From the UHGV virus genome UHGV-0205323: a DNA stretch of 26,989 nt; one strand, given 5' to 3'. The position numbers and the translations under genes are program-made. The notes beneath the pieces were generated by a model. The model saw only the letters and a list, made by a program, of their open reading frames with translations, searched no databases and had not been told where the DNA came from. How positions within the stretch are numbered: the stretch's first letter is position 1; each line of letters begins with the position of its first letter. Shown here in pieces: positions 8,752-13,240 of this stretch. Source of the DNA: a virus.

Positions 8752-10413
8752 TTACCTCCATGCAACAATTGTAACTGGTATAGTTACTGACTGACTTGTA
8801 ACTATAAGTCCTGTTGTTGTATCAACAATTCTTATTGCAAACCCGGTAGAATTATAAGTGTCGGCGTATACTTGATATTTAAAAGGAGATGGTACTGCAC
8901 CTGAATGAAAATCAGGATGTATAATTACTTTTGAGGCATAAAAACCAATTGTAACTATACCTCCCGGATTAACTGTTGTTGTCGATATATAATCCGGCGA
9001 GTTGTGTATCTTATCGTTAACCCTTATTATCTTACCATTTCCAATCATGCTAAATATAGTAAATACACCATTTGGGTCATTAAGATAAACTGTTGCATTA
9101 TCTTCTACTCTTATATGACCTGCTGTTCCGTCATCATTAAGCAAGACAGGGTTGTTAATGTAAGTTACTGAATTTCCTCGACATCTAAAATGATAAAAAT
9201 TAGGTCCGTTTGGATTAACTCTATTGAAGTGTGGATTGTTATATGTGACTACTGAAGATGATGCTACCAGTATTGATTGTGTTCCTGCTGTCATTTTTCC
9301 ATCTGTAGAATCCATCTCAAAATTTGGTGAGTCGAAAACAACCCCGGTAGAGTTTGTATCAATATGATGGAAGTAAGAGTTATAAGACCCATCATGCCCC
9401 ATATTAAAATTAATCCACTTAGACCCCTTTACACCACGAAGTCTTAGTGCAAATGCTTTGAAGTTTGCCGCATAACAGTTTATATATGTATTTTCAATTA
9501 TCTGGCCGTTACTCGAAATATCAAAACCAATTCTATTCCCATTTGCTCTGATGTTTGTAAACACATTGGAGAAGTCAGCAGGACCAGCTTTATAACCAAC
9601 ATCAAAGTAGTCTAAATACATATTAGAGAAAGTGCAGTTTACTGTCTTATTTACTCCGGTAAGATCAAGACCAGAACCAGATCCAATTGGTTGACCTCCG
9701 CTAACGGCACCCTCAACAATTAAACCTATATTTGCTATTACTGTTCCTCTTAATTCATTTCCAGATGCAGATATTCCTGAAATCCCGCTAGGTGTTTTTA
9801 TGCTTGATGTAGATAGAGAATCACCAATTAATCCAAAATTATTCTTAAGTGAAATGTTACCTTCCCATTCCCCTGGAGGAACCTTAAGGGTAATGGGAAT
9901 GCTACCAGATGCTATATAATCATTTACCGGGGAAAGATCATTACCGATAACACCAAATCCTCTTATATCTCCTAATCTTCTATAATCAGTAATAGAAATA
10001 AAATCCTGAACGGACTCCCCAGTATCGTAACAAACTAAAGATGCTCCAATATTAGACGCAAGCCTTTTTTCAAGCTGATCCGGGTCGTACTTCAGTACAT
10101 TCGGAAAATAAAACTGCTGCGCACCGTACGCATCATAAACAGCCATAGAATGGCCTTGCACGGTAACGAATTTGGCAATCTGTCCGTTATATACAGGGTA
10201 ACCAGCAGCGTTAATGATGATTGGCTGGGATACAGGAACGTGAGAGCCGTCTTCGTTCTCCACATAAACCTGAATCTGGTTTTCAGGATTTACCGGGTCA
10301 GTGTCAATTTTACCGATATAAATTTTGCCATTGGCTACGGCTTTAAAAGAACGAGCCATAGTGAAGAGTTGCGAAGGCATCGATACGATCACATTGGCTG
10401 TAATGTCTGTCAT
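8752..10413 (-). CDS. tailspike protein: P22 gp9-like N-terminal head-binding domain fused to a divergent receptor-binding domain
   Basis: N-terminal ~110 aa ([11 protein letters not shown]...[22 protein letters not shown]...[13 protein letters not shown]...VLKYDPDQ) closely matches the P22 tailspike head-binding domain as recalled; the remainder is Gly/Asn/Ser/Thr-rich and unlike P22; last gene before the int-proximal end. Confidence 0.85.
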
Positions 10414-10471: not shown

Positions 10472-10496
10472 AAAAAAACCCAGCCGAAGCTGGGTC
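10472..10496 (-). terminator. rho-independent terminator between ant and tailspike (minus strand)
   Basis: Minus-strand stem ACCCAGC / GCTGGGT with TTCG loop followed by TTTTTTTAT. Confidence 0.6.
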
Positions 10497-10513: not shown

Positions 10514-11404
10514 TCAGTAGTTATGTACTGAAGGAGGTAATTCTTTATTCTTAAGTCTCATCCATGCGGAAAGATTCGCTGGTCCGTCTGGCTCATTAAT
10601 ATCAACATCTCGTGTGTGGTTTATTAAAACGTCTCTCGCCATTCCGATAACATACGAGAACTCATGACCGTAGTCGTAGCATCTTCCGGAATAGTTCGAT
10701 TGAATTTGTTTTAACGCCGGATACAGTTCGCGGAATAATGCCTGTGAACGGTTGGCATAATCCCATAACCATACAAGACTGTTTGCTTCTTTTGCAGAAA
10801 GCTCGTTGGTCTTCTTCTCTTGTTTGCCGATAAACTCGCCTTCAAGCACTACCCTGTGGATGTACTCTACGGCCAGCGGGATTTGTTCAATTGAAAGTTC
10901 ATCAATGCTGTCAATACCAAAACGCTGATGAACCATATTGTATGCATCGTCATAGCGAAGTCCTTTCTTTCCTACCAGCATGTTTACTGCATCGCGTAGC
11001 GGTGTGCGTTCAGCTACTGAAGTTTTACCGCCAATAGCCTTCCTCTCTTGTGTGGTAGTAACCATTGCGTCATATGCACGGATAACCTTCAGCGCAAAGG
11101 CTGCGCTAATCCACATGGCGTAGGAGTAAACAAGCTCCTTGCACACGTAGGTTCCACCATATCTACCTTTCTTAGAAAGGACGGGATTCTTATTCTGCAT
11201 ATCCGCAGAATTAAAAATTTCATTAATCAATTCAATAGTTTCATTTCTACGCATGAAGAAAGCTGGCTGATGTTTTTCCTCCTTTCCAGACGCTACATGA
11301 AGGTCATTAAGCGAGTAACGACCCTCTGAATCCATATGAATCTTGACGTCAGAAATGATGATGCTATTAGTGCAATTTACAGTTGACTTTGCTAAGCTTG
11401 ACAT
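10514..11404 (-). CDS. ant: antirepressor Ant with KilA-N-type N-terminal domain
   Basis: 296-aa ORF downstream of arc on the same strand; N-terminal KilA-N-like pattern ([36 protein letters not shown]); position matches the P22 immI arc-ant arrangement. Confidence 0.65.
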
Positions 11405-11470
11405 ATCAATAATACCTCGTAAGTTTTGTTGATACCGAAGCCCTGACTGTTACAGCAGTTGGGGCTTCAA
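11377..11470 (+). ncRNA. candidate sar-like antisense RNA opposite the arc-ant junction and ant RBS
   Basis: Plus-strand terminator hairpin GAAGCCC...GGGCTTC followed by AACTTTTT (11434-11470) antisense to arc/ant; candidate promoter -35 TTGACG 11343-11348 with -10 TATTAG 11365-11370 inside the ant 5' end; 5' end uncertain. Confidence 0.3.
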
Positions 11471-11640
11471 CTTTTTGCTAGATTACCTTTAGAACTATCC
11501 CGCCTTAAACTATCCACTAACCGCATTACCATCTCGGTATTTATTGAGCGACCATTTTCTTTCGCTGACTTCTCGATTGCTAACTTAACCTCTAATGGGA
11601 TGCGCAAAGGGTACTTTGGTGCGTCTGACTTGACTATCAT
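11467..11640 (-). CDS. arc: Arc-like ribbon-helix-helix repressor
   Basis: 57-aa protein from ATG 11640 with GGAGGT RBS; PKYPLRIPLEVKLAIEKSAKENGRSINTEMVMRLVDSL parallels P22 Arc (PQFNLRWPREVLDLVRKVAEENGRSVNSEIYQRVMESF, recalled). Confidence 0.7.
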   Translation of the reverse strand: MIVKSDAPKYPLRIPLEVKLAIEKSAKENGRSINTEMVMRLVDSLRRDSSKGNLAKS

Positions 11641-11658
11641 ATTACCTCCAATCAACTT

Positions 11659-11675
11659 GGTATAACCGTTATACC
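11659..11675. promoter_or_regulatory. perfect 17-bp palindrome, candidate Mnt-type operator overlapping the ant/arc promoter
   Basis: GGTATAAC-C-GTTATACC is an exact inverted repeat around a central base, located between divergent arc and mnt and about 20 bp upstream of the arc RBS. Confidence 0.5.
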
Positions 11676-11676
11676 A

Positions 11677-11704
11677 TTGTGATCGCAGTGATGCAATAGT
11701 AATA
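11677..11704 (+). promoter_or_regulatory. candidate Pmnt promoter
   Basis: -35 TTGTGA at 11677-11682; -10 TAATAT at 11699-11704 (16-bp spacer); upstream of mnt RBS GGAGGTGG. Confidence 0.3.
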
Positions 11705-11728
11705 TCACCAAAATGCTATGGAGGTGGT

Positions 11729-11965
11729 ATGTCACGCGAAGAGCCGCAAATAAATATCAGGATTTCCAAAGAGTTAAAGGCAAAGGTTAAAGCCAGGGCG
11801 CAACATAACAAGCGTTCCATGAATGCTGAAATAATACAGATTATCGAAGATGCTGTTTGTGGTAGATCGCTTAATAGCAATGAATTTGCTCAGAAAGAGG
11901 CTGACAAATTCAGGGATGCGCTACTTGAAACACTGAAAACCATGTATGGTAAGGATGAAAAATAA
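11729..11965 (+). CDS. mnt: Mnt-like ribbon-helix-helix repressor
   Basis: N-terminus MSREEPQINIRISKELKAKVKARAQHNKRSMNAEIIQIIEDAV parallels P22 Mnt (ARDDPHFNFRMPMEVREKLKFRAEANGRSMNSELLQIV, recalled); divergent from arc-ant. Confidence 0.75.
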   Translation: MSREEPQINIRISKELKAKVKARAQHNKRSMNAEIIQIIEDAVCGRSLNSNEFAQKEADKFRDALLETLKTMYGKDEK

Positions 11966-12501
11966 TGCTGCACACAATTCATTTCTTATGCCCCGTTAAC
12001 ACTGCCACTGTTGGGCAACTTCAGAACCACTGTCTCACCGCATTATCTCAAGGCGCAACTGAATTAAATATCCATATATCAAGTCAGGGAGGGGAAACTG
12101 CCGCTGGTTTTACTGCGTATAACTTTCTTAAGTCACTCCCTGTTACCGTTAGAACTCACAACATAAGCAATGTTGAATCCATAGCTAATATCGTTTTCCT
12201 GGCTGGCTCAGAACGTTTCGCAAACCCATTATCAAGATTCCTGTTACATCCTCTATTATGGGGCTTTGCCACCCCAGCCGCCGACCATGCCAGATTGAGA
12301 GAGTACGGGAAATGCCTCGATAACGATCTTGATCGCTTCGTTGAGACGTTCAATATCGACATCGGAACCCATATTAGGTGGGCATCCCTGATAGCAGACT
12401 CGACCATTTTGGATGCTAACAAGGCTCTTGAGCATGGCATAATTAATTCCATAAAAACTGCAAGGCTGGTATCCAATCAGGCAAACTGGTGGGTTGTTTG
12501 A
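11965..12501 (+). CDS. ClpP-fold serine peptidase-like protein, translationally coupled to mnt
   Basis: ATG overlaps the mnt stop (TAATG); sequence aligns by eye to the E. coli ClpP core (IHISSQGGETAAGFTAYNFL vs [20 protein letters not shown]; Ser in SNVESIANI at the GQAASMGA position; His in FLLHPL at the MIHQP position; C-terminal LEHGIINSI vs VEYGLVDSI). Confidence 0.6.
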   Translation: MLHTIHFLCPVNTATVGQLQNHCLTALSQGATELNIHISSQGGETAAGFTAYNFLKSLPVTVRTHNISNVESIANIVFLAGSERFANPLSRFLLHPLLWGFATPAADHARLREYGKCLDNDLDRFVETFNIDIGTHIRWASLIADSTILDANKALEHGIINSIKTARLVSNQANWWVV

Positions 12502-12578: not shown

Positions 12579-12764
12579 TTAACAGCCTCCGCGTCCACGA
12601 GTAATTCTATTGCGGATTTGCTTCTTGCGGTGGTTTAAGCTGGAGAGCCTGGCTTCTGCTTCTGATATTTGCGCATCAAGATCTTTAAGCTCAAGATCTG
12701 AAAGTCGCTGGTCAAGCAGGGTTTGGTTCAACTCAATGTTGTTCAGGCGTTCTTCTATGGTCAT
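12579..12764 (-). CDS. small coiled-coil protein (61 aa), hypothetical
   Basis: AAGGAG RBS 5 nt upstream of ATG 12764; heptad-like Leu-rich sequence; start lies immediately downstream of the lipoprotein-gene terminator. Confidence 0.45.
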   Translation of the reverse strand: MTIEERLNNIELNQTLLDQRLSDLELKDLDAQISEAEARLSSLNHRKKQIRNRITRGRGGC

Positions 12765-12772
12765 GATTACTC

Positions 12773-12802
12773 CTTATAAAAAACCCACCTGACGGTGGGT
12801 TT
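12773..12802 (-). terminator. rho-independent terminator downstream of the lipoprotein gene (minus strand)
   Basis: Perfect 9-bp stem AAACCCACC / GGTGGGTTT with 4-nt loop, followed on the minus strand by TTTTTTAT. Confidence 0.6.
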
Positions 12803-12808
12803 CATTTC

Positions 12809-13240
12809 TTAATCTTGCTTTGTAGACGGTATAAGGGATGCGTTTGCCTCTTTTGGCTTCAAGGTATACATCCCACCATTAAATGGATCAACAGCAAGCC
12901 AACCAATTAACCCACCAAACACAAGGTTTCCACCAATATACCAACCATTAGCATTGGCTTTGATTGGCAGGGTAACTGGTTCGTACCCATCCTTCTCCAT
13001 AGTGATCTGGTAGCTCTTTTTGCCAAAATAACTACCATCTGACTTGGCAAGAGTTACTCCTTGCGGGGTCTTACCTTGCGCAACAATCACGCCTGATTCG
13101 TCTTTTACCTTAAAGCTCGCACCGGAAGGATTGCTGTTCACTTGCACAAGCTGTGTTTCGTCACCAACAATAGTTGCGCACCCAGATAACATGATAGCGC
13201 CAGCAACGACGCTAATAATCCTCTTCATATCAATTTCCAT
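12809..13240 (-). CDS. lipoprotein (signal peptide with lipobox LSGC); candidate superinfection-exclusion or surface-modifying moron
   Basis: N-terminus MKRIISVVAGAIMLSG-C has a type II signal peptide and lipobox; Gly-rich C-terminal segment WYIGGNLVFGGLIGWLAVDPFNGGMY; followed by its own terminator; alternative start ATG 13228. Confidence 0.6.
   Translation of the reverse strand: MEIDMKRIISVVAGAIMLSGCATIVGDETQLVQVNSNPSGASFKVKDESGVIVAQGKTPQGVTLAKSDGSYFGKKSYQITMEKDGYEPVTLPIKANANGWYIGGNLVFGGLIGWLAVDPFNGGMYTLKPKEANASLIPSTKQD

Follow-up and report, generated by a model that had tools for sequence, protein, structure and literature searches.

Background

The closest described counterpart of the locus analyzed here is the immI secondary immunity region of phage P22 (annotated in BK000583). 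It is flanked by the ejection-protein genes on one side and the tailspike gene on the other. There, the mnt repressor gene is divergent from the arc-ant gene pair, from which it is separated by a 90-bp spacer containing a symmetric operator with a C/G centre. This operator abuts the -35 element of the mnt promoter and lies over the transcription start of the ant promoter. The antisense RNA sar spans the sequence from the base adjoining the ant ATG to the arc stop codon, and an annotated terminator follows ant. The residues of P22 Mnt that contact DNA lie in its N-terminal strand, and the C-terminal part of the protein is described in PMC3325190 as making the tetramer. Among P22-like phages, the 'ant moron' or immI slot is variable, and the immI regions are often degraded (PMC2629481, PMC8022706).

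Gene content and genomic setting

We analyzed a stretch of 26,989 nucleotides of the viral genome UHGV-0205323, hereafter, the window. Its best whole-window matches are P22-like Escherichia coli phages and epsilon34, and, in this comparison, DNA transfer protein, portal, and tailspike are the annotations of the matching P22-like phages. The tailspike gene (8752-10413, minus strand) encodes the P22 head-binding domain (6.7e-67) and lies on one side of the region of interest, with the DNA-transfer (ejection) genes on the other side, that is, at the late-region position of P22 immI. The following genes and terminators were identified.

10477-10496, minus strand: intrinsic terminator 3' of ant, found by a terminator scan (8-bp stem, then TTTTTAT)
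10514-11404, minus strand: ant, antirepressor, 296 aa (Pfam P22_AR_C, 6e-30, in the C-terminal part; KilA-N, 4e-19, in the N-terminal part)
11467-11640, minus strand: arc-like repressor, 57 aa (Pfam Arc, 2e-12; PDB 1arq, E 1e-6), with the stop codon at 11467-11469
11729-11965, plus strand: mnt-like repressor, 78 aa (Pfam Arc, 7e-13; PDB 1mnt, E 9e-9)
11965-12501, plus strand: ClpP-like open reading frame (ORF) (Pfam CLP_protease, 4e-12; phrog_94, 5e-21)
12781-12802, plus strand: terminator

The ant product also matches PHROG anti-repressor families and differs from P22 Ant in its N-terminal domain, which is KilA-N rather than P22_AR_N. Among solved structures, the best match of the Arc-like protein is P22 Arc (40% identity) and that of the Mnt-like protein is P22 Mnt (35% identity along the entire protein, C-terminal region included). 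All three ORFs (arc, ant, and mnt) are intact and are preceded by good Shine-Dalgarno sequences; the Shine-Dalgarno sequence and start codon of arc (GGAGGTAATATG) are collinear with their P22 equivalents. The gene set that characterizes immI, namely, mnt divergent from arc-ant, with two ribbon-helix-helix repressors of the Arc/Mnt family and an antirepressor, is thus present in the P22 order and orientation, with an 88-bp arc/mnt spacer and a terminator after ant at the equivalent place. Given the tailspike, ant, and Arc/Mnt homology together with the P22-like whole-window matches, we assigned the region to the 'ant moron'/immI slot of a P22-like phage. Downstream of mnt, where P22 has orf59a and sieA, the window contains the ClpP-like gene, whose start overlaps the mnt stop codon (TAATG) and which is probably a co-transcribed cargo of the mnt operon. 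A PADLOC search gave nothing convincing as to a defence role of this and the neighboring ORFs.

The system is a sequence-divergent copy of the P22 switch that keeps the antirepressor silent, and the region is very probably a functional-looking homologue of P22 immI in a P22-like E. coli prophage. Homology of the genes, family membership of sar, the position and conservation of the operator, and its co-variation with the Mnt N-terminus are the observations that carry this assignment. A sequence-only reading of this DNA had proposed a complete immI-type module; ant, arc, mnt, sar, and a palindromic operator are all present, so that a textbook regulatory module was correctly recognized from the raw sequence.

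A conserved palindrome in the arc/mnt spacer

The symmetric element in the spacer is as follows.

11658-11676, both strands: perfect 19-bp palindrome TGGTATAACCGTTATACCA, predicted Mnt operator (collinear with the P22 mnt operator and conserved)

An exact 17-bp palindrome had been noted between the divergent arc and mnt genes. This 17-mer, GGTATAACCGTTATACC, is present at 11659-11675, but one further complementary pair extends it, so that its real length is 19 bp, compared to 17 bp of perfect symmetry in the P22 operator. No perfect palindrome in the window exceeds this 19-mer in length. A perfect palindrome of at least 19 bp was found in 42 of 300 dinucleotide shuffles of the window (about 14%), so the length of the element by itself is insignificant window-wide; its weight comes from its location in the 88-bp spacer, its conservation in relatives, and its collinearity with the P22 operator. 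We aligned the spacer with that of P22 (BK000583, in the same orientation; alignment A3), and the palindrome fell exactly over the annotated P22 mnt operator AGGTCCACCGTGGACCT, with an invariant ACCGT centre and an invariant adjacent ATTG-GA, which includes the -35 element of the P22 mnt promoter. As in P22, the C/G-centred operator abuts the mnt -35 element, and the distance from its centre to the arc ATG is 27 bp in the window and 25 bp in P22. The proposal of a symmetric operator at the P22 position is thereby borne out, and we predict that the element at 11658-11676 is the Mnt operator.

Conservation was assessed in 61 viral contigs encoding Mnt relatives. Relatives with the Mnt N-terminus MSREEPQINIR (60-100% identity), which come from phages of three genera, Escherichia, Klebsiella, and Cronobacter, keep TATAACCGTTATA 68-71 bp before the mnt ATG. 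The palindrome is intact or has one mismatch in this set, except for a deletion variant and one contig (L028) in which the upstream region is replaced. Klebsiella phage ST899-OXA48phi17.1 contains the same 19-bp palindrome as the window, and Cronobacter phage ES2 contains it with one mismatch; the ES2-type phages differ from the window by a second Mnt-type site over the mnt promoter. Ten base pairs close to the palindrome (11683-11692) differ in each sequence class and so are free to vary. At the equivalent place, relatives with the Mnt N-terminus MSREYPQFKLR contain AACCACCGTGGTT, and those with the P22-type N-terminus MARDDPHFNFR contain AGGTCCACCGTGGACCT. The palindrome is unchanged over three variants of the Arc strand (KYPLRIP, KYNMRIP, and KYNLRIP) and, being constant while this strand varies, tracks Mnt and not Arc. 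A scan for loci combining the same Arc with a different Mnt yielded only contigs already in the sample. Two viral contigs (L011 and L012) carry TGGTATAACCGTTATGCCA, in which a single A-to-G change at 11673 alters the right half-site and also the first T of the predicted -10 element of the leftward promoter (see below).

Repressor specificity

The operator had been read as differing from that of P22, and the half-sites differ at five of eight positions (GGTATAAC in the window versus AGGTCCAC in P22). The DNA-reading N-terminal strand of Mnt differs from that of P22 by the substitutions H6Q, F7I, F9I, M11I, and P12S, and Knight and Sauer reportedly showed in 1989 that N-terminal residues set the specificity of Mnt. 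A repressor specificity distinct from that of P22 is therefore a reasonable inference from these sequences, and the immI region of the window should be heteroimmune to that of P22, considering the differences in both the half-site and the Mnt strand. It likely represents a distinct immI immunity group among the P22-like phages of E. coli, Klebsiella, and Cronobacter, and, with its half-site TGGTATAAC and Mnt strand PQINIRIS, adds a second natural pair of Mnt and operator usable for the study of ribbon-helix-helix specificity.

Candidate promoters and Arc operator

A consensus promoter scan of 11200-11900 found no site above threshold. The same scan found the P22 ant and mnt promoters, and P22 Psar was below threshold. 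Because the scan returned none in this interval, the promoter positions given here are placed entirely by homology and conservation. The candidates in the spacer are as follows.

11677-11705, plus strand: candidate mnt promoter, TTGTGA (11677-11682), 17-bp spacer, TAATAT (11700-11705)
11668-11696, minus strand: candidate arc/ant promoter (Pant), TTGCAT (11696-11691), 17-bp spacer, TATAAC (11673-11668)
11688-11708, no strand assigned: candidate Arc operator, 21-bp partly symmetric sequence GTGATGCAATAGTAATATCAC (low confidence)

The candidate mnt promoter is collinear with the annotated P22 promoter, TTGAGA-17-TATCAT. Its predicted start is near 11712 (plus strand), and that of the leftward arc-ant transcript is near 11661 (minus strand). 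The -10 element of the candidate Pant is preceded by TGG, that is, has an extended -10 form, and is kept in all seven divergent sequence classes, as is the -35 core TTGCA, which is followed by T or C; the spacer separating the two hexamers is for the most part variable. TTGCA[T/C]-17-TATAAC is the only leftward hexamer pair conserved in all seven classes. Its -35 element has three of six consensus matches, and, in general, the candidate promoters of the window match the consensus less well than those of P22. The candidate is shifted by approximately 13 bp relative to P22 Pant, towards arc. The window lacks the P22 promoter, TTGACA-17-TATATT, at the P22 position: a Pant placed there (-10 near 11683-11688, -35 near 11706-11711) would have poor hexamers, and the bases vary among relatives, so this placement was rejected.

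The candidate -10 element would lie within the right half of the operator, and TGGTATAAC of the palindrome reads rightwards as well as leftwards. The palindrome had been noted as lying where P22 has a symmetric Mnt operator that overlaps the ant promoter. Its sequence and position agree with such an operator; the overlap depends on the predicted -10 element, and the arrangement would differ from that of P22, given that the operator of the window covers the candidate -10 element, whereas that of P22 lies over the transcription start.

A clear, convincing separate Arc operator was not found in the window. The 21-bp candidate matches the annotated P22 Oarc in length and is approximately 4 bp off the equivalent position; its outer arms are GTGAT/ATCAC, and it is symmetric at six of ten positions. 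It overlaps the -35 element of the candidate Pant and the -10 element of the candidate mnt promoter, so its conservation is inseparable from that of the promoter hexamers and is not independent evidence. Other repeats in the region, namely, direct repeat D1 (11518-11532 versus 11663-11677, 80%) and inverted repeats I2 and I4, were judged to be due to chance or to the two divergent Shine-Dalgarno/ATG regions.

The sar antisense RNA

The features of the antisense RNA are as follows.

11370-11398, plus strand: candidate, weak sar promoter (Psar), GTGCAA, 17-bp spacer, TAAGCT, with TGC before the -10 element
11405-11474, plus strand: sar antisense RNA, approximately 68-72 nt (start taken from the P22 annotation and end placed by the T-run)
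11405-11433, plus strand: sar hairpin I, with the loop CCUC (11415-11418) as anti-Shine-Dalgarno
11437-11468, plus strand: sar hairpin II, terminator, 14 pairs, followed by AACTTTTTGC (AACUUUUU) with the T-run at 11472-11476

The plus-strand hairpin with its T-run had also been noted from the sequence and read as part of a sar-like RNA, complementary to the junction of arc and ant and to the ribosome-binding site of ant. We found that this RNA is a true member of the sar family, beyond mere likeness: the Rfam model RF00262 matched 11406-11472 (plus strand) with 67.4 bits (gathering score 43, E 3.9e-13), over positions 1-68 of 68 of the model. As in P22, the RNA spans the sequence from the base adjoining the ant ATG to the arc stop codon and is antisense to the arc-ant intercistronic region, with the ant ATG at 11404 and the ant Shine-Dalgarno sequence GAGG at 11418-11415 (minus strand). 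The predicted fold (-29.2 kcal/mol, z -6.8) has the two-hairpin shape of P22 sar. The terminator hairpin hardly differs from its P22 counterpart and is followed by a longer T-run; by contrast, the sequence of stem I and loop I differs from that of RF00262 sar and matches the Emek-type ant leader.

Matches to sar were found at the equivalent place in 15 of 20 related loci. Hairpin II is almost invariant across these otherwise mosaic loci, and stem I has at least five different sequences among the 15 variants, with the anti-Shine-Dalgarno always in loop I when the sequences are folded singly. RNAalifold, applied to a MAFFT alignment of the 15 sar sequences, recovered only the terminator hairpin and not stem I. 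The opposite strand folds at -20.3 kcal/mol, 9 kcal/mol more weakly, because several of the pairs are G-U, and this excess stability of the sar strand argues that the structure is selected on that strand.

The candidate sar promoter lies within the first ant codons, where alignment A1 places the annotated P22 Psar, and, like the latter, is below the threshold of the consensus scan. Among the 15 aligned loci, the -10 element is TGCTATACT (TATACT, as in P22) in 12, ACACT in two, and TAAGCT in the window, where the site reads TGCTAAGCT; Emek and L006 have the same sequence. TAAGCT has three of six consensus matches and keeps A2 and T6 as well as the TGC extended -10. Alternative sar promoters with a -35 element TTGACT (11383-11388) or TTGACA (11398-11403) were rejected, given that either an acceptable -10 element is lacking or the RNA would not cover the Shine-Dalgarno sequence of ant. 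Thus, sar is certainly encoded and, given its TAAGCT element, may be weakly made.

Mosaicism and the Kapi1 deletion

The window is mosaic at the sar terminator. On one side, the ant 5' end and sar are of the type of the Salmonella phage Emek (approximately 97-98% identical); on the other side, arc and mnt are of the Kapi1 type, a pair different from that of Emek. In phage CUS-3, the sar terminator lies within an annotated 'boundary sequence'. Kapi1 is the closest sequenced phage for arc-mnt (93-98% identity over the segment), but lacks the 65 bp corresponding to 11630-11694 of the window, which include the start and the Shine-Dalgarno sequence of arc as well as the palindrome, the candidate Pant, and the -35 element of the candidate mnt promoter. 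A transcriptome study of the Kapi1 lysogen published in 2026 found no expression of mnt (Kapi1_063), a result presented there as surprising (PMC12922286). The deletion accounts for the silent Kapi1 mnt, and both the deletion and the silence are consistent with the candidate promoter map; it likewise accounts for the tolerance of the lysogen to the silent mnt, given that the candidate ant promoter is deleted as well. A search of 5,426 complete E. coli genomes located the junction of the deletion only in strain MP1, the Kapi1 host, and the intact spacer in 43. The window is the intact reference that explains the silent mnt of a model commensal phage.

Proposed mechanism

In the scheme outlined here, we infer protein binding, the promoter positions, the Arc site, and the expression of sar. 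By analogy with P22, mnt would be transcribed rightwards in the lysogen from TTGTGA-17-TAATAT, and an Mnt tetramer on 11658-11676 would block the leftward arc-ant promoter, whose candidate -10 element, TGG-TATAAC, is inside the operator, so that Mnt would occlude this element directly. After infection, the arc-ant promoter would fire briefly, and Arc would then silence both divergent promoters, probably via the site at approximately 11688-11708. The sar RNA, of approximately 70 nt, would pair with the interval between arc and ant and with the Shine-Dalgarno sequence of ant, and thus block the translation of Ant.

A further-reaching proposal, which we put forward tentatively and consider quite possible but somewhat short of probable, is that this immI is wired unlike that of P22. 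Under this proposal, the operator would itself consist of two extended -10 elements placed back to back, with TGGTATAAC on each strand, and Mnt would repress ant by sitting directly on the -10 element of a Pant shifted by approximately 13 bp; the arrangement would define a separate immunity specificity in P22-like phages of Escherichia, Klebsiella, and Cronobacter, and Kapi1 would tolerate its silent mnt only through the 65-bp deletion of the operator-promoter unit. Taken as a whole, the findings on this locus are not surprising and leave the understanding of immI unaltered; the locus is of interest to specialists in ribbon-helix-helix specificity or in Kapi1.

Alternative explanations

Two alternatives concern the palindrome. 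That it is a functionless feature due to chance has a negligible probability. Although about 14% of the shuffled windows contain a perfect palindrome of at least 19 bp, this one occurs in the single 88-bp spacer where an operator is expected, has the AC[CG]GT centre seen family-wide, and is conserved in phages of three genera while adjacent bases vary; this conservation already contradicts the chance reading. The other alternative assigns the palindrome to the Arc-like protein, which would bind it alone or besides Mnt, so that it would not be a dedicated Mnt operator. Arc and Mnt are paralogous, their DNA-reading strands are alike, and one locus (L059) has an AC[C]GT-centred sequence, CTATCACCGTTATAG, that resembles the palindrome of the window, at the P22 Oarc position; the failure to find a convincing separate Arc operator in the window also fits this idea. 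However, the palindrome lines up with the Mnt operator of P22 and not with Oarc, it is invariant together with the Mnt strand while the Arc strand varies, and AC[CG]GT palindromes accompany most of the Mnt-type N-termini sampled. We therefore consider Arc binding of this kind very unlikely.

The remaining alternative, which we regard as improbable although clearly less so than the other two, is that the region is a decaying remnant, in which genes and sar hairpins persist by inheritance but the promoters no longer have enough strength to work; sar, in particular, would not be produced, and the conserved hairpin would act only as a recombination boundary or terminator. Degradation of immI is common in P22-like phages (PMC2629481, PMC8022706), and there are relatives with the 65-bp deletion (Kapi1) or with the point change in the operator and -10 element (L011 and L012). 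The failure of all candidate promoters in the consensus scan and the deviant -10 element of Psar (TAAGCT, against TATACT in 12 and ACACT in two of the 15 aligned loci) point in the same direction, as do the mosaic junction of Emek-type ant/sar with Kapi1-type arc/mnt and the 'boundary sequence' annotation of this terminator region in CUS-3. Yet the experimentally known P22 Psar fails the same scan, and the candidate Psar of the window retains its extended -10 (TGC) together with A2 and T6, the key bases. Moreover, none of the three ORFs is disrupted and each has a good Shine-Dalgarno sequence, the palindrome of the operator is perfect, the intact spacer persists in 43 complete E. coli genomes, and the pairing of hairpin I survives sequence change and is favored on the sar strand. 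These features argue for the preferred reading of the region as a functional-looking immI homologue.

Related sites upstream of other Mnt-like genes

We also examined a family-wide sample of 62 loci from bacteria, one genome per species, encoding proteins with the N-terminus M[SA]R..PQ[FI][NK][LIF]R. In approximately 17 of these loci, mostly with the N-terminus MSRTDPQFKLR, no AC[C/G]GT-centred site was found within 130 bp. A distant Mnt-like protein (L104) with the same PQINIR strand as the window is associated with AGCACCGTGCT sites, so the Mnt strand alone does not fix the half-site, that is, there is no simple code. The site of the window shares the AC[C/G]GT centre but reads AAC at a place where CAC is found in nearly all others. 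Of the 62 Mnt-like repressor genes sampled across Proteobacteria, approximately 45 have symmetric upstream sites centred on AC[C/G]GT, an association that is a modest addition to what is known of these repressors, and there are often three such sites per locus, approximately 26 bp apart.

Deletion and sequence variants of the arc-mnt control region

Phage Kapi1 (L001 3205-3206) and a second related locus, L019, are missing 65 bp corresponding to window positions 11630-11694. With this segment, Kapi1 lost the arc start, the palindrome predicted to be the Mnt operator, the candidate ant promoter, and the -35 element of mnt. The Kapi1 mnt gene is reported to be silent in the lysogen (PMC12922286), which is explained by the removal of the control region through the 65-bp deletion. 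Among 5,426 complete genomes, the Kapi1 deletion junction was found in E. coli MP1 only, and the intact spacer in 43.

A natural variant, TGGTATAACCGTTATGCCA, is shared by the related loci L011 and L012, where a single A-to-G substitution at the equivalent of window position 11673 breaks the palindrome and converts the predicted -10 element of the ant promoter from TATAAC to CATAAC. For these prophages, the substitution is possibly a promoter-down mutation.

In relatives of the Cronobacter ES2 type (L026-L029 and L004), a second Mnt-type site, TAGTATTACGGTTACACCA, lies over the mnt promoter, some 20 bp upstream of the start codon of mnt, and this location suggests autoregulation of mnt. By contrast, the class to which the window belongs retains only a degenerate remnant, TAGTAATATCACCA, at this site.

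Genes encoding Mnt-like proteins with the N-terminal motif M[SA]R..PQ[FI][NK][LIF]R were identified in Pseudomonas, Stutzerimonas, Burkholderia, Caballeronia, Acinetobacter, and other bacteria. Within 130 bp upstream of each Mnt-like gene in the genome contigs L084-L145, palindromes centered on AC[C/G]GT were detected in about 45 of the 62 loci. Often, there are three such sites, spaced about 26 bp apart, and the flanks of the half-sites vary with the class of the Mnt-like protein.

Mosaic joints and adjacent genes

The sar terminator hairpin (11437-11468) is nearly invariant among loci with unrelated flanking genes and, in the window, falls at a mosaic joint between ant/sar of the Emek type and arc/mnt of the Kapi1 type. 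The annotation of phage CUS-3 (L146 1483-1964) lists the sar terminator region as boundary sequence bsq2. Another joint falls exactly at the mnt stop codon, since in close E. coli relatives a different gene follows at this point. The following genes lie beyond this joint:

11965-12501, + strand, ClpP-like ORF, 178 aa (Pfam CLP_protease, 4e-12; PHROG "head maturation protease" family)
within 12579-13240, - strand, coiled-coil-like protein, 61 aa (phrog_7586)
within 12579-13240, - strand, predicted lipoprotein, 143 aa (phrog_6823; weak matches to PEGA and to a Cor-like signal peptide)

The ClpP-like ORF, which occupies the slot filled by orf59a and sieA in P22, showed no PADLOC match. Its start overlaps the mnt stop codon (TAATG), and co-expression of the ORF with mnt from the prophage is therefore probable. 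The two small leftward ORFs, which separate the ClpP-like gene from the DNA-transfer genes, are possible prophage-expressed cargo.
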